Shown: one piece after another, positions 3,065 to 20,367 of the stretch
Numbering within the stretch: the first letter of the stretch is position 1
How the letters are laid out: the number at the start of each line of letters is the position of its first letter
Assembly: GCF_900199515.1 (NCBI RefSeq)
Contig: NZ_LT963434.1
Span: 753,272 to 785,271, forward strand
Origin: Massilicoli timonensis
GTDB taxonomy: Bacteria; Bacillota_I; Bacilli_A; Erysipelotrichales; Erysipelotrichaceae
DNA length: 32,000 nucleotides
Direction: 5' to 3'
The notes under the pieces: generated by a model
Database searches by the model: none
Told to the model about the DNA's origin: nothing
Seen by the model: the letters and a program-made list of their open reading frames with translations, nothing else
Program-made: the position numbers and the translations under genes

Positions 3065-4002
3065 ACTACCTTGCCCTCCTTTCCGCTTATCATGCGTGGA
3101 TTTAACGCTCGATTGACCAGTTCTCCTACCGTATTGCAGATAACAAAAATCAGTCCGAGAACCAAAACACAGCCTGTAATAACAGGAAGGTCCCGATTAA
3201 CAATGGCACTGACAAAATAATTTCCCAGCCCCGGCCAGGAAAACACACTCTCCACAATGGCACTACCGCCAATCATCATCCCAATGTTTTGGAAAAACAA
3301 GGTGACCATAGGGGGCAAGGCATTTTTCAGAACATGCTTCCAAAGGATCTGAGCGGTAGACAGTCCTCTGGCCTGTGCGTAAATCACATAATCTTTTTTC
3401 AGATTTTCCAGGATCGTGGCCCGGAGCATCCGGACGGAAGAAGACACAACTGATGCCGCCAGTGTGATCGACGGCAGAATCAGGCTGCGCAAATTTCCGT
3501 AATCCACGACCTTGAATACCGGAATACGAATTGCAAAAGCGGTTAATAGAAGATACCCAAGCCAAAAAGCAGGAATGGAAATCCCAAGAATCGTAATTAT
3601 CCGAATCAAATGGTCGCAAAACCGATCCTTTCTGACTGCTGACACAATTCCAAGCGGAATGGTAATCAGGACAATCCATAACAGTGCCATTCCCACCAGA
3701 AAAAGCGTAGCAGTCAATTTTCCTGCCATCTCCTGTATTACAGGCTGATTGCTCTGATAAGAAGTCCCGAGATCTCCGCGCAGGCAGTTGCCGACCCATC
3801 GAGCATATTGTGTCAGGATTGGTTGATCCAGCCCTTTTTCTGTACGAATGTCTTGGATCTGCTCTTGTGTTGGGTTGCTGTAAATACGTCGGGCAATCGC
3901 TTCTGCTGGATCGACCGAGGATAGATTTGCCAAAATGAAGGACAGCAGGCTCACACCGATGAGCACGATCAGAACTCTTATCAGTTTTTTTATGAAATGC
4001 AA
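3061..4002 (-). CDS. ABC importer permease (OppB/DppB/NikB-like)
   Basis: 313 aa. N-terminus xHFIKKLIRVLIVLIGVSLLSF is typical of DppB-type permeases. Non-ATG (TTG) start close to GGAGGA, so the exact start is uncertain. Confidence 0.85.
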   Translation of the reverse strand: MHFIKKLIRVLIVLIGVSLLSFILANLSSVDPAEAIARRIYSNPTQEQIQDIRTEKGLDQPILTQYARWVGNCLRGDLGTSYQSNQPVIQEMAGKLTATLFLVGMALLWIVLITIPLGIVSAVRKDRFCDHLIRIITILGISIPAFWLGYLLLTAFAIRIPVFKVVDYGNLRSLILPSITLAASVVSSSVRMLRATILENLKKDYVIYAQARGLSTAQILWKHVLKNALPPMVTLFFQNIGMMIGGSAIVESVFSWPGLGNYFVSAIVNRDLPVITGCVLVLGLIFVICNTVGELVNRALNPRMISGKEGKVV

Positions 4003-10317: not shown

Positions 10318-10689
10318 ATGAAACTTCATGCGTCCGGGGAGGACTATCTGGAAAGCGTCCTTGTTCTCCAAAAGAAACTCGGTATGGTGCGCTCTGTAGA
10401 TGTTGCCCGGCACATGGGTGTGTCAAAGCCAAGTGTATGCGTGGCAGTCAATACTCTGAAAGATGGCGGCTTTCTCACAATGGACGAAAATCATTTTCTC
10501 CATTTGACCGATATTGGCAGAGAGGTTGCTGAACAGATTTATGAAAAGCACTGCTTTTTTACTGAGCAGCTTATCGCCGCAGGAGTTGACCCGAAAGTGG
10601 CGGAAGAAGATGCCTGCCGGATTGAACATATTATCAGCGATGAGAGCTTTTCACGGCTGAAAGAGGCAGCTGCACAAGAGCAAGAATAA
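10318..10689 (+). CDS. DtxR/MntR-family metal-dependent transcriptional regulator (short form, no SH3-like domain)
   Basis: GEDYLESVLVL...VRSVDVARHMGVSKPSVCVAVNTLKDGGFL...LTDIGREVAEQIYEKHCFFTEQL...ACRIEHIISDES matches the winged-HTH plus dimerisation/metal-site layout. Start taken at the ATG at 10318. Confidence 0.8.
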   Translation: MKLHASGEDYLESVLVLQKKLGMVRSVDVARHMGVSKPSVCVAVNTLKDGGFLTMDENHFLHLTDIGREVAEQIYEKHCFFTEQLIAAGVDPKVAEEDACRIEHIISDESFSRLKEAAAQEQE

Positions 10690-11021
10690 ACCGAATAAGC
10701 CAAGCTATCCTGCCCCGCCTGACGGGGAAAGAAAAAAACCGTTGCAGGGCAGGTAGCTTCGTGCGCCCATAATGGATTTTCAGGATACTGCGGCGGTTTT
10801 GAGTACATCAAGGCCGCCGTTTCTTATACCCTCGACAAAGGAGTGACGCCTATACGCTGACACGGCGGCTTTAGGAGGGAGCCGCCATGAAGCACAGAGA
10901 GCTTCGACATAATCTGACAGGAATCAACCTGCTAAAAAAATCCTGACCGTTTATCGGTCTCCATCTGCTTTTGAACAGGCACTATCATGGCTGGTTCAGA
11001 AGCACTATCAAATCCCTTTCG

Positions 11022-11075
11022 AAAGCGCCAGCCGCCGCACACCGGATGCTGGCGCTTTTGCTTGTCGTTTTTTCG
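11022..11075 (+). terminator. Rho-independent terminator
   Basis: AAAGCGCCAGC (11022-11032) pairs with GCTGGCGCTTT (11048-11058), followed by TGCTTGTCGTTTTTT. Confidence 0.6.
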
Positions 11076-11154
11076 GGAATTATCCCGAACGGTGTCGCCC
11101 ACCGCCTCCGTTTCTGTTCACCCGTCAACCCGTGAATCGAAATGGAGGTACATA

Positions 11155-11580
11155 ATGCAGAAGATCAATCTTCGGGAACTGTATCCCGATGTGTATAAAA
11201 CCGATGTCTTTGTGGATGTAGCTGAGGAAGTCCTGGCCGCGATCCGGGGCCAGGAGCAGGACGATGCCGCCTACGAACGCCGGATGTACCGGCACAAGGC
11301 CCATTACTCTCTGAACCGGGAGGATGGTATTGAAAACGATGCCCTCAACCGGCCGCTCACCCCGGAGGAAATTCTGGAGCAGAAGCAGCTGCGGGAGGAA
11401 GTGTACGCCGCGCTGATGCAGCTGACCGCCATCCAGGCCCGGCGTATCTACGCCCGGTTTTACCTGGGCATGACGGTGGCCGAGATCGCCCGAATCGAGG
11501 GCGCTGACCGCCGCCGCGTGTGGGAGAGCATCCGGCGCGGGCTGAAGAAGCTGGCACGTCTGCTGGACACGGCCCGATAA
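11155..11580 (+). CDS. Sigma-70 region-4-type HTH protein (Tn916 ORF7-like element regulator)
   Basis: 141 aa. C-terminal AIQARRIYARFYLGMTVAEIARIEGADRRRVWESIRRGLKKLARLL resembles sigma region 4. ATG at 11155 follows GGAGG. The longer track ORF (10987) would span a terminator. Confidence 0.6.
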   Translation: MQKINLRELYPDVYKTDVFVDVAEEVLAAIRGQEQDDAAYERRMYRHKAHYSLNREDGIENDALNRPLTPEEILEQKQLREEVYAALMQLTAIQARRIYARFYLGMTVAEIARIEGADRRRVWESIRRGLKKLARLLDTAR

Positions 11581-11608
11581 TCTGACCGCCGCATAGTGCC
11601 AAAAGAAA

Positions 11609-11639
11609 GCCGGTGGGGGATTTTTATTCCTCCACCGGC
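11609..11639. terminator. Bidirectional terminator between convergent genes
   Basis: GCCGGTGGGGGA / TCCTCCACCGGC stem (12 bp including one G-U) with loop TTTTTAT. It abuts the XRE stop codon. Confidence 0.6.
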
Positions 11640-12020
11640 TTACTTATCCTCTAAATGTTCATCTGGATCAACCCCGGCCGTCTGCACCATCTCTTTTAGC
11701 TCATCGGCCAAAGCACGGGTCGAATTTAACAGCACTTTTCTGGCAGCCGGAGGGCACGAAAGATAAAGCTGCCGCATATCGTTGGCGGCTTGCTCATCTT
11801 CTGGCAGATCGAGATTCATCAGGGAATCTAAAGATAAATTCAAGACTTTGCCAAAAGCGCGTAGAACCTCAAAAGAAGGGTTTTTCACCCCTCTTTCGCA
11901 GCCTTGAACGTGCTTCAGAGAAACATGGCTCAGATCTGCGAGTTCCTGCTGCGTCAGACCTTTTTCCTTACGCGCTTTTTGTATCCTTCGTCCTAGCTCT
12001 TTTAACAGTTCCATAGGCAC
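11640..12020 (-). CDS. XRE-family HTH transcriptional regulator (element repressor-like)
   Basis: LGRRIQKARKEKGLTQQELADLSHVSLKHVQGCERGVKNPSFEVL is a classic Cro/C1-type HTH. GTG at 12020 lies 6 nt after AAGGAG; an alternative ATG is at 12014. Confidence 0.85.
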   Translation of the reverse strand: MPMELLKELGRRIQKARKEKGLTQQELADLSHVSLKHVQGCERGVKNPSFEVLRAFGKVLNLSLDSLMNLDLPEDEQAANDMRQLYLSCPPAARKVLLNSTRALADELKEMVQTAGVDPDEHLEDK

Positions 12021-12282
12021 TATCGTCTCCTTAATAATATTTTATCGTGCCCATTTTCTTGCCGGAAGAACCTTATAAAAGGTATTTTAGGGTACGATAG
12101 TACCTATTTTATTGTGCTTGCTGGGTACTTGCTCTTCACTAAACTCCTTGTAAGGCGGCAAGACCAAAAATATTTTCAAAAAATCGCATTACCAGACAGG
12201 ACAAATCATCTATTTTTGTCATGGTTGTCAAGAAGGAGTTTTTCTTCTCTGTTCTTTGACAAACGAATAGACGGCATTTCTG

Positions 12283-12650
12283 GTACATAGCCCATGTACG
12301 AGCGAATCAGGCGCGCCGCCAAGAAGGACAAGCCAAGGAGGTGATGAACCGGCTGTCCTGAGCGATCAACGCAAGCCTGAAACCCGGAGGTGGCACTTCG
12401 GGTCGCGGTGACTGCATGGGGGCTTAAAGATACTTCCTCACGGCCTCCTAAAGACTTGGGGGGAACCCTGCGGCGCACGAGCAAAACGACGCTGCGGAGT
12501 TATGACAGCCGCGCCAGCGGAGACCAGGAATGTCCCTATCGTCAGGGGCGCGTGGCAAATGTGACGAAAGTAACGGATATTATCTGAAAGGCTGCGTCCA
12601 TTTGCTGTTAGCAACAACAAGGCATCATTTGGGTGCAGTCCTTTCTTTTC
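12283..12650 (+). ncRNA. Candidate structured RNA or long leader (unclassified; strand and ends tentative)
   Basis: GC-rich, no credible ORF, multiple local helices. A terminal 14-bp helix (12587-12600 / 12630-12644) is followed by CTTTTC. A possible extended -10, TGgTACATA, lies at 12281-12289. Confidence 0.3.
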
Positions 12651-12663
12651 AAAGTCAGATACC

Positions 12664-12693
12664 ATGAGCTGGCAGCTCTGGTTGCCAGCTCAT
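12664..12693. repeat. Perfect 11-bp inverted repeat with 8-nt spacer, 43 nt upstream of the recombinase operon
   Basis: ATGAGCTGGCA-gctctggt-TGCCAGCTCAT, followed by TCATGTGATTTTG. Confidence 0.6.
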
Positions 12694-12735
12694 TCATGTG
12701 ATTTTGAAACCGACTTCAAAGAAAGGAGAACCCTT

Positions 12736-12948
12736 ATGAGCCAGCTAACACAAACATCAACCGATGAATTGGTTGACATCCGTGAAGTCACGGTAGACAA
12801 AGACCTCCCCAAAGAGGAACGAATCGCGGCCTTTCTTCACCAGATCAAAAATCCCTATCGCTTTCGCTGCGGTGATTTTGTGGTAAACGCCGCATTTGCC
12901 AGCAACGGGGTCACATTGGAGGAATGCCTGCAAGGGATTTTAAGGTGA
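12736..12948 (+). CDS. Small conserved element protein (DUF6870-like, from memory) preceding serine recombinases
   Basis: 70 aa: MSQLTQTSTDELVDIREVTVDKDLPKEERIAAFLHQIKNPYRFRCGDFVVNAAFA... RBS AAAGGAGAA. I recall this type of protein upstream of clostridial LSR genes; unverified. Confidence 0.55.
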   Translation: MSQLTQTSTDELVDIREVTVDKDLPKEERIAAFLHQIKNPYRFRCGDFVVNAAFASNGVTLEECLQGILR

Positions 12949-13070
12949 TCGACATCCTCGCTCTTTTTCCAAAAGCGTGCTACGATGTGTATGGAAAAGG
13001 ATGAAAACTGAAAACCTCGAAATCCACTCTTTTCTTGCGGGAGCTTCCAGGAGGAAAGGAGTGCTTTTTC

Positions 13071-14699
13071 ATGCCAAAATATCAGGCAACAGCTTACATT
13101 CGTCTGTCTTACACCGATGATCGCTCCAGCGAGAGCGACAGCGTTACCAACCAGCGGAAGCTGATTGAGAACTTCATTGAACGAAACCCGGACATTCAAA
13201 TCGTATCCGAAAAAATCGACGATGGTTACAGCGGTATCATTTTTGACCGTCCGGCGTTTAAGGAAATGATGCAGGACATCACCGATGGCAAGATCAACTG
13301 CGTCATTGTAAAGGACCTCTCCCGTCTGGGACGGGAGTACATCGAAACCGGACGCTATCTGCGCCGGGTGTTCCCCACTTATGGGGTTCGTTTTATTGCC
13401 ATCACGGATAACATCGATACCGCCCATGAAGGCAGCGGTGACGATCTGACCGTATCCGTCAAGAACATTATGAACGAAGCCTACTGCCGGGACATTTCCA
13501 TCAAGACCCGTACCTCTTTGGATATAAAGCGGCGGAACGGAGATTTTGTTGGAGCTTTCCCTGTTTACGGCTATATGAAATCCGAGGAAAACAAAAATCT
13601 GCTTGTACCTGACCCGTATGCTTCCCGCGTTGTCCGCGACATCTTCCGTATGCGTCTGGATGGGACAAGCGCCCTGCGGATCGCCACTACCTTAAATGAG
13701 ATGGGCGTCCTGTCGCCACTGGCCTATAAGAAAAACAATGGTTTCCCTTATGCCAAACACGGCTATGCCGACAAAGAGGATTGCAAGTGGTCTGCTACAA
13801 CGATTATTCGTATTTTGCAGGATGAAACCTACATTGGCACATTAGTACAGGGGAAGCAAGGCACCCCGCACTATAAAATCAAGCAGATGGAGCAGCGGCC
13901 ATCCTCTGAATGGATTCGCGTTCCTGATGCCCATGAGCCGCTGATTGCCAAGCAGGATTTTGAACTGGTCCAGCGTATCCGCAGACTGGATACCCGGACT
14001 TCTCCCAAGCAGGATACAGTGTATCTGTTTTCCGGCGTCTTGATCTGCGGGTGCTGTGGGAGCCGCATGACGCGAAAAACAAACCGGGTCAAGGGCAAGG
14101 AATATCACTATTATTATTGCCCCACCGGGAAAAAGCATGGCTGCACCAACCCGGTAATGCTCAAGGAAAGCGATCTTGTAGAGTGCGTCAAGGACAGTCT
14201 GAAAGGCTACATCGACAATGTAAGCTGCCTGCAAGCCATCCTGGACGGCATCGACCAGAGCAGCATCAACCAAGCACTTGCCAATGAATACGCCTCCCAC
14301 ATCGCCGCCAATGAGCAGCAGGTGGAACAGGCGCTTGAATTTAAGGCCCGACTGTATGAAAGCCTGATTACCGGCACCATCAGCAAAGAGGAATATACCG
14401 ACTATAAGGCCAGATACACGAGGATTGCGGAAAACGCGAAAGAGAGTATTCGGGTCTTAAAGGAAAAGCTGGCTGATGTTCTGGAGAACCGGAGTGAACG
14501 GAACCGCTGGATTTCCCACTTCACACAGTTTTCTACGATGGAGACCCTGGACCGCAAAGCTGTGGTTCACATGATACAGAGTATCAAGGTGATTGGAAAA
14601 AAGGAATTGGAGATCACCTTTACATACCAGGACGAATACCAGAAAGCGATCCAGCTGATCCAGCTGGCAGAGCAAACAAGCCAAAGAAAGGTGGGATGA
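13071..14699 (+). CDS. Large serine recombinase 1
   Basis: AYIRLSYTDD (nucleophile Ser), VIVKDLSRLGREY, Zn-ribbon CGCCGSRM...YYYCPTGKKHGC, C-terminal coiled coil. ATG at 13071 follows GGAGGAAAGGAG. Confidence 0.92.
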   Translation: MPKYQATAYIRLSYTDDRSSESDSVTNQRKLIENFIERNPDIQIVSEKIDDGYSGIIFDRPAFKEMMQDITDGKINCVIVKDLSRLGREYIETGRYLRRVFPTYGVRFIAITDNIDTAHEGSGDDLTVSVKNIMNEAYCRDISIKTRTSLDIKRRNGDFVGAFPVYGYMKSEENKNLLVPDPYASRVVRDIFRMRLDGTSALRIATTLNEMGVLSPLAYKKNNGFPYAKHGYADKEDCKWSATTIIRILQDETYIGTLVQGKQGTPHYKIKQMEQRPSSEWIRVPDAHEPLIAKQDFELVQRIRRLDTRTSPKQDTVYLFSGVLICGCCGSRMTRKTNRVKGKEYHYYYCPTGKKHGCTNPVMLKESDLVECVKDSLKGYIDNVSCLQAILDGIDQSSINQALANEYASHIAANEQQVEQALEFKARLYESLITGTISKEEYTDYKARYTRIAENAKESIRVLKEKLADVLENRSERNRWISHFTQFSTMETLDRKAVVHMIQSIKVIGKKELEITFTYQDEYQKAIQLIQLAEQTSQRKVG

Positions 14700-14702
14700 T
14701 TT

Positions 14703-16361
14703 GTGGCAAGAAAAAGCAGAAAGGAAACTGTGGTGCTCCCTGCACCGGAGATAGATCCCTCTTGCCGCGCTGGAGTTTATGTGCGGCTTTCCGTTGAGGA
14801 TAAGCATACCCACACCGTTTCTATCGAAACCCAGCAGCTGATTATCGCCCGGTATCTGGAGCAGAACCCGGAGATTATTGTGGTACAGACCTACATTGAC
14901 AATGGCGCAACGGGTACGAACTTCCACCGCCCCGGCTTCCAGCAGATGCTCTCCGATATTGAAGCGGGTCTTATCAACTGCGTCATTGTAAAGGACCTCT
15001 CCCGCCTGGGGCGAAATGTCATAGACACAGGCTACTATATCGAGCGTTACTTTCCCATGCAGAAAGTCCGCTTTATTGCCGTAAATGACCGCTACGATTC
15101 TTCTTCCCCGGATAATGCCCACGATGGTATCATCATCCCGCTGCGGAACATGATTAACGAAGCCTATGCGATGGATATTGCCAGGAAAATCAAAGCCCAG
15201 CAGCGGCAGGCCATGAAAGACGGCAAGTATGTTGGTGGGCGCACACCCTATGGATATTTGAAAGCTCCAGATGATTGCCACCAGCTGATTGTTGATCCTG
15301 TGGCTGCCGAGGTAGTCAAAACCATGTTCCAATGGGCCGCCGAGGGCGCAGGATTAAACACCATAGCGGTACGATTGAACGAGGCCGGGTATCTCTCTCC
15401 CAGCCACTACAAGAGGACTTTGGGAGAGATCACCCATGAAAATCTGGTAGGCAATGGGCATTGGCAAACCCGCACCGTAGCCAAAATTCTTCGCGCAGAG
15501 GTTTATACCGGAGATCTGGTGCAAGGGGTATCTAAAATCATTGACCACAAGCAGGTCAGAGCCAGCGCCGATGAATGGACAACGGTACGCGGCACCCATG
15601 AAGCCATCATCAGCCGGGAGCTGTTTGCCGCTGTTCAGAAAGCGTTGGACCAGGCTGCACAGCAGGCAAAAGACAGGGAGATCCATTCCTGGTCCCCCAA
15701 TCTTTTGAAAGGCAAAATCTTCTGCGCCCACTGCGGACGCAGCCTTCACCGACAGAAATGCGTCCGCAGAAAGTCACAGGAGGTATATGTCTACCACTGT
15801 ATCAGCAACAACCGTATCAAAAAGGGCGTTTGTCCTGGTGCATTTATCTTTGAAAAAGAGCTGCTGGATACCTTGGCCGATATGATACAGGAACAGCTTG
15901 ATACCACGCTGGGGCAATACTCTCTTGGTCTGGAAAACCTCTCCAAAGAAGCCGAGGAACAGAAAAACATACAGGCTAAAATCGCCAGCCGGAAACAGGA
16001 AATCCAGCAGCTGCGAACCTATCAGCGTGGATTGTATGAGGGCCTGATCCAGAACCGTCTTTCAAAAGACGAGTATTTTACCTTCAAAGAAAAATACGAA
16101 GCCAAAATCGAGGCCATCAGCAAAGAAATCGAGCAGCTGAAAGCAGGGCTTGCGATTCTCGCCAAGCAGCTGGAACAGTATAAAATGCTGTCCCAGGATG
16201 CACAGCATATCAAGGAAGATCGCCAGCTGACGGCAGCTCTGATTGACCGCCTGATTGACCGTGTAGAGGTCTCAAGAGAAAAGCGGATTACGGTTCGTTT
16301 CCGCTTCCAGAGCGAATTTGAGCATTGTGAGGAGGTGCTGAGCCAGTGCAGAAATATGTGA
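14703..16361 (+). CDS. Large serine recombinase 2
   Basis: VYVRLSVEDK, VIVKDLSRLGRN, CAHCGRSL...VYHCISNN...GVC, coiled-coil tail. GTG start 3 nt after the rec1 stop, preceded by AAGGTGGG. Confidence 0.9.
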   Translation: MARKSRKETVVLPAPEIDPSCRAGVYVRLSVEDKHTHTVSIETQQLIIARYLEQNPEIIVVQTYIDNGATGTNFHRPGFQQMLSDIEAGLINCVIVKDLSRLGRNVIDTGYYIERYFPMQKVRFIAVNDRYDSSSPDNAHDGIIIPLRNMINEAYAMDIARKIKAQQRQAMKDGKYVGGRTPYGYLKAPDDCHQLIVDPVAAEVVKTMFQWAAEGAGLNTIAVRLNEAGYLSPSHYKRTLGEITHENLVGNGHWQTRTVAKILRAEVYTGDLVQGVSKIIDHKQVRASADEWTTVRGTHEAIISRELFAAVQKALDQAAQQAKDREIHSWSPNLLKGKIFCAHCGRSLHRQKCVRRKSQEVYVYHCISNNRIKKGVCPGAFIFEKELLDTLADMIQEQLDTTLGQYSLGLENLSKEAEEQKNIQAKIASRKQEIQQLRTYQRGLYEGLIQNRLSKDEYFTFKEKYEAKIEAISKEIEQLKAGLAILAKQLEQYKMLSQDAQHIKEDRQLTAALIDRLIDRVEVSREKRITVRFRFQSEFEHCEEVLSQCRNM

Positions 16362-17872
16362 TTGCCCTTTATATCCGCCTTTCCCTGGAGGATTATAAAT
16401 ACGACAGTATGAGCATTGAAAACCAGCACCTTGCGCTGAACGAATTTATTTCTTCCATGCCGGAGTCCACTCATGCAGAAGTCCTTGAGTTTATCGACAA
16501 CGGGTATAGCGGGACAAACTTTGAGCGTCCCAAAGTCCAGGAGCTGATTGAGATGGTACGGGCCAATAAGATCGACTGTATCATCGTAAAAGACTTTTCC
16601 CGATTTGGACGAAACAGCATTGAGACTGGCTATTTCATTGAGCGTGTGTTCCCGCTGTTTCACACCCGGTTCATTTCCATCAACGATGATTTTGACAGCG
16701 ATCAGCACAAGGGCGATACTGGCGGTATGGATGTAGCTTTCAAGTATCTGATCAGCGAGTATTACAGCCGTGATATGTCCATCAAGACCAAAAGCGCCAA
16801 GTACGCCAAAATGCAGCGCGGCGAATACCAGAGCAAAGTTTGCCCTTACGGGTATCGCAAAAGCGCCGATGGCAGAATGGAACCGAACCCGGAAACCGCT
16901 GCTGTGGTACAGCTTATTTTCCAACTTGCCGCAACCGGAATTGGAGCGGCAGCCGTTACCAGGGAACTCTTTAAGCGAGGCATCCCGACCCCCGGAGAAT
17001 ACAAAGCAACTCATGGGCAGCAGTACCACGATGTCTCCCGCTCCCGTGGACGCTGGAGCAGTTCTACGGTTCTCCGTATCCTGGAGGACGAACGCTATAT
17101 CGGCTCCTATGTCATCGGGCGTCGTGCAGTCATTGAAGTGGGCGGCACAAGGAGCCGCAAGAAGGACCGGGACAAGTGGTTCATTATCCCAGACCATCAT
17201 CCGGCAATCGTTGATAAAGAACTATTTGAAAAGGTGCAGGCTGTGCAGCGCCGATTCTCCTTGCCGACCAAGAAAACCAGGGAGTACCCACTAAAAGGCA
17301 AGGTCTATTGTGGCTGCTGTGATCATGCACTCTCCCGCATCGTCCCCAAAAGACCATTTTATATGTGCCGCCATTCTACCGCTGATGTGAACAGCCGCTG
17401 CCGAGATGTCCGGGCAGATGCTGCCGGTCTGGAGGAAGCCGTCCTCCTCACTTTGAAAAAGCAGCTGGAAATCCTGCTGCCCGTACATAAAGACGGCACC
17501 ATTCACTTGGAGGCCACCGCTGCCAAATGCTCTGAGTATGAGAAGCAGATGGAAGTTCTGAAGGACCAGAAGCAAGCTCTCTTTGAACGGTATCTCTTGG
17601 GGCAGATCGAGCTGGACACATATAAATCGGAGAAAGCAGTTTATGACGCAGAAATACTGAAAGTCAAAAATGCCTATGCTGCTGTCACCGCTCAGGCAAA
17701 GTTGAAGCGGGAAGAACAGGCCCGCCAAAGCAGCCGACAAGAGATTGCTCACTCGATTGAGGAAGCAGATGCGCTAACCTCCGAGTTGACCGATCTGCTG
17801 ATTGAAAAGGTGTATGTATTCCCCGACAATCGCATTGAGATTGTTTACAAGGTCCATGACCTCTTTGGATAA
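16346..17872 (+). CDS. Large serine recombinase 3
   Basis: LYIRLSLEDY, IIVKDFSRFGRN, CGCCDHAL...FYMCRHS...SRC, coiled-coil tail. GTG start after GGAGGTG overlaps rec2 by 16 nt. Confidence 0.9.
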   Translation: MQKYVIALYIRLSLEDYKYDSMSIENQHLALNEFISSMPESTHAEVLEFIDNGYSGTNFERPKVQELIEMVRANKIDCIIVKDFSRFGRNSIETGYFIERVFPLFHTRFISINDDFDSDQHKGDTGGMDVAFKYLISEYYSRDMSIKTKSAKYAKMQRGEYQSKVCPYGYRKSADGRMEPNPETAAVVQLIFQLAATGIGAAAVTRELFKRGIPTPGEYKATHGQQYHDVSRSRGRWSSSTVLRILEDERYIGSYVIGRRAVIEVGGTRSRKKDRDKWFIIPDHHPAIVDKELFEKVQAVQRRFSLPTKKTREYPLKGKVYCGCCDHALSRIVPKRPFYMCRHSTADVNSRCRDVRADAAGLEEAVLLTLKKQLEILLPVHKDGTIHLEATAAKCSEYEKQMEVLKDQKQALFERYLLGQIELDTYKSEKAVYDAEILKVKNAYAAVTAQAKLKREEQARQSSRQEIAHSIEEADALTSELTDLLIEKVYVFPDNRIEIVYKVHDLFG

Positions 17873-17974: not shown

Positions 17975-18021
17975 ATAGTTAAATTCTATTTACTATGAAA
18001 GCTGTACCAGGGGGAACAAAA

Positions 18022-18936
18022 ATGGGAAATCGAACATTTGAAGATGTGAAAAGCTATGTAGAATGGCAATCTCAAGGGAAATGCACAGTATTGAGCGCAA
18101 AAACAGAGCAACACTTCGATGATTTGGGTGTTGATGTGCGCGTCTGGAATGTCAAAACCGATACTGATGGAGATTGGTGGGTAGTGGAGGGCGACGGGAT
18201 TCCGATGAATCTCTATCCCCAAAGTGCATATTATTTTGGAGCAGATGAAGTGTATTCTTTCCACATGGGCTTAATGCAGAGAATGAGCGCAGCCCAGGGT
18301 GAATATAGTCCAGAGGATTTTGTAAATGGTGTGACGCTCGATGCAGAAATTGCTCCTCAACTTTTCCGAAAGCTCAAAAGTGTCGCTGCGCTAATTGATA
18401 CCGCTAAGGAGATTGAAGATTTTCAAGCGATAGGTGTTCAGTGCAGAGAAACATTGATTGAGCTCGGCAACCACATTTATGCCCCTGCAATGGCTGGTGA
18501 TGGGGAGCAGCCCCAAGCATCGAATTTCAAGCGAAAATGTGAACTATTTATTCAGTTCTATTTGAAAGGATCGGAAAACGCAGATTACAGAAGTATTATT
18601 AAGAAACTAACAGAATCCACCTGGGATTACGCCAATAAGATTACACATTCGCGTAGTGCTACATACTACGAAGCCTCAACCTGTGTTACGCTTTGTATTT
18701 CTCTTGTTGGCGTTTATGAAAACATCCTTCAGAAAGTTTTCGATCCACTTTCTCAATACCATTGCTCAGTTTGCCAAAGTAAGAAATTAAGCATTGATGG
18801 TGATGATTCGGATGAAGATGGAATGGTGAAAAAACTATATCTCCGTTGTGAAGAATGCGGTGCTACAACAGAAGTAGTCTTTGAAGGAAATGATGGAGAT
18901 AATCCCACCTATACTACGGGCAAAGTCGTAGAATAA
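18022..18936 (+). CDS. Orphan hypothetical protein with C-terminal CxxC...CxxC zinc ribbon (cargo gene; function unknown)
   Basis: 304 aa from the ATG at 18022 (AGGGGGAAC upstream). C-terminus is YHCSVCQSKK-(24 aa)-LRCEECGATTEVVF. The central helical region has a DUF4145/HEPN-like feel (...WDYANKITHSRSATYYEA...), unverified. Visibly AT-richer than its neighbours. Confidence 0.7.
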   Translation: MGNRTFEDVKSYVEWQSQGKCTVLSAKTEQHFDDLGVDVRVWNVKTDTDGDWWVVEGDGIPMNLYPQSAYYFGADEVYSFHMGLMQRMSAAQGEYSPEDFVNGVTLDAEIAPQLFRKLKSVAALIDTAKEIEDFQAIGVQCRETLIELGNHIYAPAMAGDGEQPQASNFKRKCELFIQFYLKGSENADYRSIIKKLTESTWDYANKITHSRSATYYEASTCVTLCISLVGVYENILQKVFDPLSQYHCSVCQSKKLSIDGDDSDEDGMVKKLYLRCEECGATTEVVFEGNDGDNPTYTTGKVVE

Positions 18937-19951
18937 AAAGCAAAAACAGAAAACCCAGACTATCAGCACTAAGATTGGTAGTTTGGGTTTTCTGCTTTTC
19001 AGAATTATATTTTTTTGTCGTGTGCTTGACATACGGGTGGCGAAGATCGTGGATACGAATACGCTTTACCCCGGCTTCTTTTGCACCCCTGTCCATCTCG
19101 TGGTGCAGATAGCTTTTGGTAACGGTAAAAACACGGTCTTTCTTTTTCAGCCCGTACTGCATACTGAAAAATTCCTGCATTTCGGTACAAAGAAAATCAG
19201 GCATTTGCACGGTACGGTTGCTTTTCTTTGTTTTCGGTGAGGTGATTACATCCTGACCTTTCAAACGCTGATAAGTCTTGCTGATTTTTACCGTTCCTTT
19301 TTCAAAGTCAAAATCGGCAGGGGTAAGAGCAAGCAACTCACCCTCACGGATACCTGTCCAATAAAGCATTTGAAATGCGTAATAGGAAAGCGGCTTATCC
19401 ATCATCACCTCGGAAAACTTTTGATACTCTTCCTTCGTCCAAAACAGCATTTCCTTTCGTTCCTCACTGCCCATATTGCCTGCTTTTGAGGCGGGATTGC
19501 TGCGCAAGTCATAAAATCTGACTGCATAGTTAAAGATGGCTGAAAGCTGATTGTGCAAAGTCTTAAGATAAGATGATGAGTAGGGCTTGTTTTCCTCGTT
19601 GCGGTAAGCCAGCATTTCATTTTGCCACGCTCTCACATCTTTGGTGGTAATCTCGTTAATTTTGCGGTCTTTAAAGTACGGCAGAATTTTCTGCTGAATA
19701 ATGTTCTCTTTGGTCTGCCAAGTGCTTTCCTTTAATCGTGGCTGCTGTTCTCTGCAATAAATTTCAACGAAGGCAGAAAAGGGCATATCCAAATCTCCTG
19801 AGCTTTGCTGCTGAAATTTCTGTTCCCAATCCTGCGCCTCTCGTTTTGTGGCAAAGCCACGCTTGCACTTTGGTTTGCGTTCGCCTTTCCAGTCGGTATA
19901 CTGCGTCATCACATACCAAGTGCCGTTGTCTTTATTCTTGTAAACGGGCAT
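18914..19951 (-). pseudogene. Tyrosine integrase (Tn916/phage-integrase family), 3'-truncated; homology ends at 19037
   Basis: Arm-binding-type N-terminus MPVYKNKDNGTWYV...KRGFATKREAQDWE, core WTGIREGELLAL and box II RIRIHDLRH. It then gives 40 junk residues (PYVKHTTKKYNSEKQKT...) read through hairpin S2. The ~60-70 aa region carrying the catalytic Tyr is missing. Confidence 0.8.
18950..18991. terminator. Hairpin S2 (bidirectional terminator-like; diverged copy of S1)
   Basis: AAAACCCAGACTA / TAGTTTGGGTTTT stem, followed by CTGCTTTTC on the plus strand and by CTGTTTTTGC on the minus strand. Its flanks align with S1. Confidence 0.7.
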
Positions 19952-20142
19952 TAATCATCTCTCCTTTCTGCTCCGTAAATTCTTTCACTAAAATACTGTC
20001 GGCTGACACGCCCTGCAACTGTAATAAATCCCTTTGCTCTCAGTTCATCGTTGAGCTGTCGGATAATCTTGTAGGCGTAAGCCTTTGAAACATCAAGTTC
20101 CTCTGCAACTTCATCTGCTCGCATAAAAGTCTTATCTGTCAT
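19951..20142 (-). CDS. Excisionase-family / MerR-like HTH DNA-binding protein (Xis-like)
   Basis: MTDKTFMRADEVAEELDVSKAYAYKIIRQLNDELRAKGFITVAGRVSRQYF. ATG at 20142 lies 8 nt after AAGGAG. Its stop overlaps the integrase ATG (TAATG). Confidence 0.75.
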   Translation of the reverse strand: MTDKTFMRADEVAEELDVSKAYAYKIIRQLNDELRAKGFITVAGRVSRQYFSERIYGAERRDD

Positions 20143-20367
20143 AAAATCAACTCCTTTAAAAATAGTCATCCTTATTTCGTGTCGGAATGCTTTCTGACCG
20201 CCTTCCGATTTGCCCGGGCGGGTACGCCATTACCGTGGTGTACGACGGTTATTCAGTTTTCACAGACTTAACGCTATTAGTTTAAGTCTGTATCATTATT
20301 ATACTAAGCAAATTCCGTAAAGTCAAGTGGTTACGAGAAAATATTAAACTTTTTTGTTTTTGTAGTC

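Follow-up and report, generated by a model that had tools for sequence, protein, structure and literature searches.

A conserved structured leader RNA upstream of a serine-recombinase operon in Massilicoli timonensis is probably a relative of the Tn916 antiterminator canT

Cis-acting structured leader RNAs such as put of phage HK022 and EAR of the Bacillus eps operon cause RNA polymerase to ignore downstream terminators. A bipartite processive antitermination device, conAn, is found in the operon leader of conjugative elements of Gram-positive bacteria, among them pLS20 (PMC8191782). The conjugation-associated antitermination RNA canT, reported in 2024 from a single element, lies between orf8 and xis of Tn916 and is an orientation-specific, cis-acting, processive antiterminator, most likely an RNA (Wirachman & Grossman, PLoS Genet 2024, PMC11658703). 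A fragment of 452 bp, which covers nt 126-577 after the orf8 stop, is sufficient, and the S3 change of ATA to TGC at nt 283 after this stop inactivates canT (PMC11658703). It works without other factors of the element and on heterologous terminators, does not complement in trans, has an activity that depends on promoter and orientation, and is dispensable for Tn916 excision; its authors found structure prediction inconclusive and did not undertake comparative analysis (PMC11658703). Another relevant RNA is the pemK motif (Rfam RF02913), a candidate cis-regulatory motif from comparative genomics to which Rfam assigns no function; in the literature searched we found no paper linking pemK with canT. 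Here we describe an RNA in a 32,000-nt stretch of the Massilicoli timonensis genome (contig NZ_LT963434.1, 753,272-785,271, forward strand), referred to as the window, whose positions are used as coordinates unless a locus label (L) is given. The RNA occupies 12254-12706 on the + strand, directly upstream of an operon with three large serine recombinase (LSR) genes. We consider it probable that this is a cis-acting leader RNA of the canT family, of the processive-antiterminator kind, with the pemK motif at its centre.

The RNA lies within a 715-nt gap between the genes of an XRE repressor-like protein (11640-12020, - strand) and a DUF6870 protein (12736-12948, + strand). A preliminary description of this DNA, made from the sequence letters alone, had singled out the gap as free of protein-like open reading frames and GC-rich from about 12280. 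We found that GC content climbs from 0.38 to 0.58 at about 12250 and that the three open reading frames of the gap, which encode 65-92 aa and overlap one another, have no Pfam match, so both statements and the size of the gap are borne out. Folding of the + strand at 12260-12735 gave a z-score of -5.05, with none of 100 shuffles equal to the native sequence, versus -1.37 for the - strand of the same region, indicating a strand-specific fold. In the family alignment described below, 346 of 356 pairwise indel runs have a length that is not a multiple of three, and variation tracks base pairing rather than codons. The overlapping 65-92-aa frames are what a decayed or frameshifted gene might leave behind, an idea the preliminary description had also raised; however, the absence of Pfam matches, the indel lengths and the pairing-driven variation all speak against a remnant, and we give this explanation almost no weight. 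Because it has covarying pairs and indel runs that are mostly not multiples of three, we consider the region to be an RNA and not a decayed gene.

Comparative collection of upstream regions and a test for covariation had been proposed as a check, and both conservation and a covarying fold were found upstream of DUF6870 and LSR genes. A DUF6870 protein query, with one genome per species, returned 51 loci, chiefly from Oscillospiraceae and Lachnospiraceae, and blastn showed that window sequence 12256-12735 is retained upstream of DUF6870 in about 45 of them, with aligned identity down to about 57%. Several loci resemble the window from precisely 12254-56 (CTTTGACAA) onwards and have different DNA upstream of this point. 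A pattern search of IMG/VR contigs for the RNA core added 113 stretches, giving about 35 sequence clusters at 93% identity in total. Our covariance model, R1, spans 12272-12536 (273 positions and 57 pairs, the 3′ hairpins being analysed separately) and matches the window at these positions with 270 bits (E=1.8e-79). With it, the RNA is detected in about 150 loci of gut Clostridia, in exactly one copy per locus; three distant DUF6870 loci (L049-L051) gave no R1 match. Blastn of the region found no match among plasmids and a single partial match among phages. In the Rfam scan, also proposed earlier, no family was significant in the window at gathering and E-value thresholds; a sub-threshold pemK match at 12424-12505 (18.2 bits) is the only notable one. 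Rfam likewise returned no match of the window to any antiterminator family of the put or EAR type, and these much smaller RNAs have no sequence or structural similarity to the window RNA. The segment 12254-12706 on the + strand is thus a real conserved structured non-coding RNA.

The fold of this RNA is supported by extensive covariation. RNAalifold, run on 21 representatives, predicted 80 pairs with compensatory changes at 46. Across 57 distinct sequences, 92.2% of the cells of the 57-pair model are paired, compared with 74.5% in shuffled alignments (0 of 500 reach the native value) and 35-45% when partners are slid, and 48 of the 57 pairs show compensatory changes. Values for the full 65-pair structure are similar (92.0% paired versus 75.2% for shuffles, reached by 0 of 500, and 36-46% for slid partners; compensatory changes at 54 of 65 pairs). 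The core (12273-12534) is closed by P1 (12273-84/12523-34), a long-range helix of 12 bp found by RNAalifold, and encloses P2-P5, a pemK-like domain and P9 (12509-12/12517-20). Directly 5′ of P1 is a near-invariant box, CTTTGACAAACGAATAG (12254-12270; consensus CnTTGAMAACTGAATAnAC). P2 (12291-97/12414-20) joins CCCAUGU to GCAUGGG over a long range; its columns were not modelled as pairs, yet are 89% paired, with compensatory changes at 6 of 7 pairs. P3 has two segments, 12308-15/12370-79 and 12317-19/12362-64. The helix AGGAC-AGCC/GGCT-GTCCT of the preliminary description is P4 (12325-34/12351-59), in which each of the 9 pairs has compensatory changes, and its ACCCGG/TCGGGT helix (12382-87/12398-403) corresponds to P5 (12383-87/12398-402), also supported by covariation. 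P6 (12436-37/12442-43), P7 (12444-48/12459-63) and P8 (12464-75/12490-501) covary as well, and within P7 the CCTCC that had been remarked on at 12444-48 has a real local partner, GGGGG at 12459-63. Just 3′ of the core lies the P10 hairpin (12540-12566), whose arms CGUCA/UGACG (12540-44/12562-66) enclose a conserved loop, GGGGCGCGUGGCAAAUG; each of its 5 pairs forms in 37-40 of 40 sequences, with the exchanges CG/UA, GC/AU, UA/CG and AU/GC.

Other pairings that had been read from the single sequence were not upheld by the alignment. The hairpin GTACAT/ATGTAC (12283-88/12294-99) pairs in only 16-25 of 40 sequences, and its bases are used elsewhere, with GGU 12282-84 in P1 and CCCAUGU 12291-97 in P2. 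In place of the long-range pair GCGCCGC/GCGGCGC (12313-19/12470-76), the 5′ half pairs with 12362-72 in P3 and 12470-75 with 12490-97 in P8. The proposed TGTCCCT/AGGGGCG helix (12531-37/12544-50) stands in part: its UGUC belongs to the 3′ strand of P1 and the covarying helix at this place is P10, while CCC (12534-36) and GGG (12545-47) are both invariant and may form a pseudoknot. P1, P2, P3, P6-P10 and a conserved terminal hairpin (12650-12706) were absent from that first reading. We found no covariation for a kissing interaction of GUGA in the P4 loop with UCAC in the P6 loop, nor for pairing of the 5′ box with CAAAG at 12650-54. The TTGACA at 12256-61 was considered as a -35 promoter element and rejected because any matching -10 element would put the transcription start within P1. 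Two lineages, L128 and L140, carry an 11-12-nt insertion (CATGAATAAGAG / CATGAAGAAGAA) that splits the 3′ strand of P1 and forms a large bulge in an otherwise strict helix.

At the centre of the core is the domain that gave the weak Rfam match to pemK (12424-12505). It consists of UUAAAGAUACU, a closing pair U12435-A12502 (UA in 54 of 55 sequences) around P6-P8, and a following UGA, and so matches the pemK consensus architecture AUAAUGAUACU-U(hp1)(hp2)(hp3)A-UGa. In both RNAs (A/U)UAAWGAUACU comes before, and UGA after, a U-A pair that surrounds three consecutive hairpins, and some members of the family lie directly upstream of a PemK toxin gene. The two differ in that hairpin 1 of the window RNA has only 2 bp and hairpin 3 is long, and in that the motif makes up only the middle of a larger, P1-closed fold of about 260 nt. 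A bona fide pemK RNA (42.8 bits) was also observed at L091 12678-12730, within an AT-rich element and about 270 nt upstream of another LSR gene (12999-14795); that contig also carries a copy of the large RNA.

The same domain links the window RNA to canT. We used the Tn916 copy from pCF10 (L166) as reference, in which the 452-bp canT fragment is L166 2166-2617. Tn916 has an Rfam pemK match within canT, at L166 2323-2423 (55 bits, E=5e-9), and the S3 triplet (L166 2323-2325) is the first three bases of the motif consensus. Because the inactivating canT mutation falls on these first bases, the pemK motif is likely the functional centre of the family, and we conclude from the sequence comparison that it represents the probable core of canT-type RNAs. 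R1 aligns over its full length to the + strand of L166 2180-2451 (15 bits, E=1.4e-4), its best match in the locus, and it also aligns to L167 1733-1964 in a Tn916-like element of Vescimonas (E=1.3e-3), which has a pemK match of 39.8 bits at 1873-1936, between orf8 and xis. When P1, P2, P3, P4, P5, the closing pair and P9 are threaded onto Tn916, all 49 of 49 pairs are canonical. The active canT fragment has at its 5′ end a counterpart of the 5′ box, CTTTGAAAACTGAATA (L166 2164-2179), and the two RNAs additionally have in common CCGCCAUGA, CCGCCAWGA, GAGCGAU, GAUACU and UGA. They therefore resemble each other in the 5′ box, P1-P5, the three-hairpin domain flanked by GAUACU and UGA, and P9.

The genetic setting is also alike. 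The order in the window is a sigma factor gene (+), the XRE gene (-), the RNA, DUF6870 and three LSR genes; in Tn916 it is orf9 (-), orf7 (a sigma factor gene), orf8, canT, xis and int. Both RNAs come after sigma and helix-turn-helix regulatory genes, directly 5′ of recombination genes and in sense orientation. The XRE protein is 25% identical to Tn916 Orf9 (E=4e-8), and the sigma protein has a weak match to Orf7 (24% identity, E=0.014); as judged by these similarities, the two window genes are the counterparts of orf9 and orf7. The Tn916 regulatory module has this arrangement, with sigma and XRE genes ahead of xis and int. The window RNA differs from canT in GC content (0.60 versus 0.44 in Tn916) and in the genes that follow it, DUF6870 and three serine recombinase genes rather than xis and int. 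Like canT, and unlike conAn, the window RNA would be sufficient alone, and it is located before a recombination module. By homology to canT, the window RNA would be an antiterminator.

Several observations weigh against this assignment. The R1 score on Tn916 is low, at 15 bits, and a short unrelated hairpin reaches 13.4 bits; we therefore base the homology to canT on the collinear helices and motifs, the score itself being weak. The pemK score of the window (E=1.4 in a 1-kb search) is below the gathering cutoff of 34.8 bits, and ten family loci likewise have no pemK match at the gathering level. At the S3 site the family consensus is AUAAUGAUACU and the window clade has UUAAAGAUACU (12424-34), with 2 of 3 S3 bases kept; the window motif reads UUAAAGAUACUU rather than AUAAUGAUACUU. 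Tn916 has no P10, no terminator-like hairpin directly behind the RNA, no terminal hairpin and no anti-16S loop (the counterpart of the P4 loop being 3 nt), and the mechanism in the window may thus differ in part. Additionally, a strong hairpin (AAGCCGGTGGGGG / CCTCCACCGGCTT, 11607-11641) between the convergent sigma and XRE genes, probably a bidirectional terminator, and the antisense XRE gene itself part the sigma gene from the RNA, making Tn916-like co-transcription with the sigma gene doubtful here. Since this hairpin follows the sigma gene, transcription of the RNA probably starts from a separate promoter in 12021-12255, but no convincing one was found in that interval.

The loop of P4 (AAGGAGGUGAUGAACC, 12335-12350) displays a perfect complement to the 3′ end of 16S rRNA. 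The AAGGAGGUGAU loop is conserved, being GGAGGUGA in 36 of 43 distinct P4 regions, and the anti-16S sequence is missing in seven lineages, with a helix extension or a short loop instead in L027, L137, L040, L041 and L145. A leader peptide starting at this loop was considered and rejected: the ATG two bases past the Shine-Dalgarno-like loop is not conserved, being ATT, ATC or AAG in other clades, in agreement with the earlier view that a real start here is unlikely.

Between the core and DUF6870 we observe two further hairpins. The first (12586-12649; -24.3 kcal/mol, z=-3.1) is followed by UUUU and is a candidate intrinsic terminator. The preliminary description had noted this hairpin (12587-600/12630-44) correctly; most lineages have it, though with differing sequences. 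At this position L081 (-41.6 kcal/mol), L073 (-23.0 kcal/mol) and L015 (-34.1 kcal/mol), for example, carry a GC-rich hairpin with a U-rich tail, which is absent from L037 and the L046 clade; these terminator calls rest on inspection and four explicit folds. The second, terminal hairpin (12650-12706; -35.2 kcal/mol, z=-8.0) has outer arms CAAAGUCAGAU / AUGUGAUUUUG, conserved in sequence, and an inner stem AUGAGCUGGCAGC / GUUGCCAGCUCAU. Thirteen of its 23 pairs have compensatory changes, and many are G-U pairs that become A-C on the opposite strand. This hairpin is present in loci of the DUF6870 type and in those with Xis and integrase genes, and absent from PemK-type and 'YKEV'-type loci.

A core followed by a terminator-like hairpin is also what a signal-responsive attenuator would look like. 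In such a device the P1-closed core would sense a ligand, a protein (such as the sigma factor, XRE or DUF6870) or the ribosome, and would set termination at 12586-12649 and thereby gate excision. The layout of a closed multi-helix junction, a terminator-like hairpin, a second conserved hairpin and a ribosome-binding site is similar to that of an aptamer with an expression platform, the conserved anti-16S loop could act as a sensor, and canT of Tn916 has no terminator directly behind it. However, canT, to which the RNA is homologous, needs no other factors of its element and acts on heterologous terminators (PMC11658703). Moreover, the core is conserved but the sequence of the terminator hairpin is free to change, L037 and the L046 clade lack this hairpin, and no covarying antiterminator pairing was noticed by eye, no systematic search having been made. 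We consider an attenuator unlikely.

The conserved outer arms of the terminal hairpin bear on a different explanation, in which the element acts as DNA, as an attachment or recombination site, or as a single-strand origin or single-stranded DNA promoter of the transferred strand. Two DUF6870 and LSR loci without the RNA core, L026 and L047, have breaks at conserved leader sites. The family sequence of L026 (about 1640-1700) breaks in the P10 loop (CAGCAAATAGG for TGGCAAATAGG) and passes into reverse-complement DNA resembling a serine recombinase gene; that of L047 (about 2890-2920) is interrupted within the terminal hairpin, in its 5′ arm (TTTCAGTACCATG for AAGTCAGATACCATG), and passes into reverse-complement DNA resembling a tyrosine integrase gene. 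These breaks are either true insertion or recombination junctions or chimeras of metagenome-assembled genomes (MAGs). As breaks followed by inverted recombinase genes, they would fit a DNA site, as would the conserved arms. On the other hand, both loci are short MAG contigs that may be chimeras, folding is strand-asymmetric, many of the covarying pairs are + strand G-U pairs and would be A-C on the other strand, and the activity of canT depends on promoter and orientation (PMC11658703). A function at the DNA level is therefore very improbable in our view.

The genes downstream of the RNA bear on whether it is a partner of the serine recombinases, which the preliminary description had mentioned as a novelty should a conserved RNA be found. 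We counted contexts at the 142 loci for which the downstream sequence extends to 1.5 kb or more. DUF6870 and serine recombinase genes are downstream in 119 of these, and an unrelated 56-66-aa protein with serine recombinases in 15. Another three encode a PemK/MazF toxin (PF02452, E=1e-31) together with a 53-aa protein and a serine recombinase, and three an HTH_17 excisionase-like protein and a Tn916-type tyrosine integrase. The type with Xis-like protein and Tn916-type integrase comprises L054, L074, L083 and L091, and the PemK type L060, L073, L119 and L134; the RNAs ahead of the Xis/integrase and PemK genes score 245-260 bits with R1. Without exception, the RNA has the orientation of the element's recombination module and lies immediately upstream of it. 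A sigma-70 region-4 gene is upstream of it in 75 of the 97 loci with enough upstream sequence, and in the window the XRE gene is inserted between the two.

That 137 of 142 copies precede large serine recombinases, and that the RNA is as large and ornate as the RNAs of other mobile-element recombinases and nucleases, could point to a trans-acting guide or cofactor of these enzymes. However, the same RNA precedes tyrosine-integrase modules and PemK genes, and its homologue canT does not complement in trans (PMC11658703). L026 and L047 have DUF6870 and LSR genes without the core, and the variable parts of the RNA are helix extensions and the terminator-like hairpin, not loops that track the recombinase. 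With its serine recombinase, tyrosine integrase and PemK contexts it has no exclusive tie to one recombinase family, unlike a guide of the IS110 bridge-RNA type. A trans-acting role is thus highly unlikely; the idea of a new RNA partner is unsupported because canT is an already described cis-acting antiterminator of a tyrosine-recombinase element. The fallback of the preliminary description, a long structured regulatory leader before the recombinase operon, agrees with the finding of a covarying + strand RNA directly 5′ of recombination genes.

As a canT-type antiterminator, the RNA would work as follows. RNA polymerase that has transcribed the core would keep the folded RNA bound and become resistant to terminators. 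It could then read through the hairpin and U-tract at 12586-12649 and later terminators and reach DUF6870 and the three serine recombinase genes, and after excision and circularisation of the element transcription would continue across the joint into the genes at its other end. Expression of DUF6870 and the recombinases would depend on read-through of the 12586-12649 and 12650-12706 hairpins. The leader may also gate excision, as suggested in the preliminary description, given that the recombinase genes are separated from the RNA by a terminator-like hairpin; excision of Tn916, however, does not require canT (PMC11658703). We also envisage, as a doubtful extension, that a canT-type RNA has been turned into a conditional gate, with DUF6870 and the LSRs made only when the RNA is active and the P4 loop coupling this activity to the 30S subunit, the ribosome or another factor, so linking excision to translational state. 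Nothing comparable is known for Tn916 canT.

The remaining features of the locus surround this leader. The sigma-70 region-4 protein gene (11152-11580, +) and the XRE gene were assigned with Pfam. DUF6870 (PF21757, E=1.6e-26) follows a ribosome-binding site, AAAGGAGA, that extends the feature to 12723-12948 on the + strand; literature searches for DUF6870 found nothing. The three LSR genes (13071-14699, 14703-16361 and 16346-17872, all +) each encode Resolvase, Recombinase and Zn_ribbon_recom domains. An inverted repeat, GACAAA-N9-TTTGTC, at 12200-12220 in the spacer between XRE and the RNA is kept in XRE-carrying loci and is a candidate XRE operator. Further upstream, a non-coding gap of about 460 nt (10690-11150) separates a DtxR-like repressor gene from the sigma gene, and a weak Rfam match to SQ2397, 'cis-regulator of HTH transcription factor', occurs at 10646-10837 (27.5 bits versus a gathering cutoff of 100). 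Directly after the third recombinase gene is a 313-aa open reading frame (17995-18936) with no Pfam family. A second integration module (18914-20169, -) adjoins the serine recombinase array and has no canT or pemK-like RNA; it comprises a tyrosine integrase (Arm-DNA-bind_4, Phage_int_SAM_3 and Phage_integrase domains) and a small Xis-like open reading frame, and the integrase frame, which ends in an odd hydrophobic C-terminus, may be disrupted. In L007, an Oscillospiraceae MAG, the first serine recombinase gene after DUF6870 (about 3310-3570) looks truncated, as an 86-aa open reading frame with an LSR N-terminus, and the recombination module there may be decaying.

Together, the window and about 150 relatives provide a covariation-backed architecture for the family, a P1-closed fold of about 13 helices in which invariant nucleotides are identified. 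This comparative structure makes the mechanism testable through compensatory mutants and defines a minimal RNA that could be used in structural studies with RNA polymerase. If the assignment to the canT family is right, this antitermination device is not confined to Tn916-type tyrosine-integrase transposons but also occurs in serine-recombinase elements, in which human and animal gut Clostridia are rich. This would suggest that control of read-through is a general way for such elements to time the expression of their recombinase and transfer genes.

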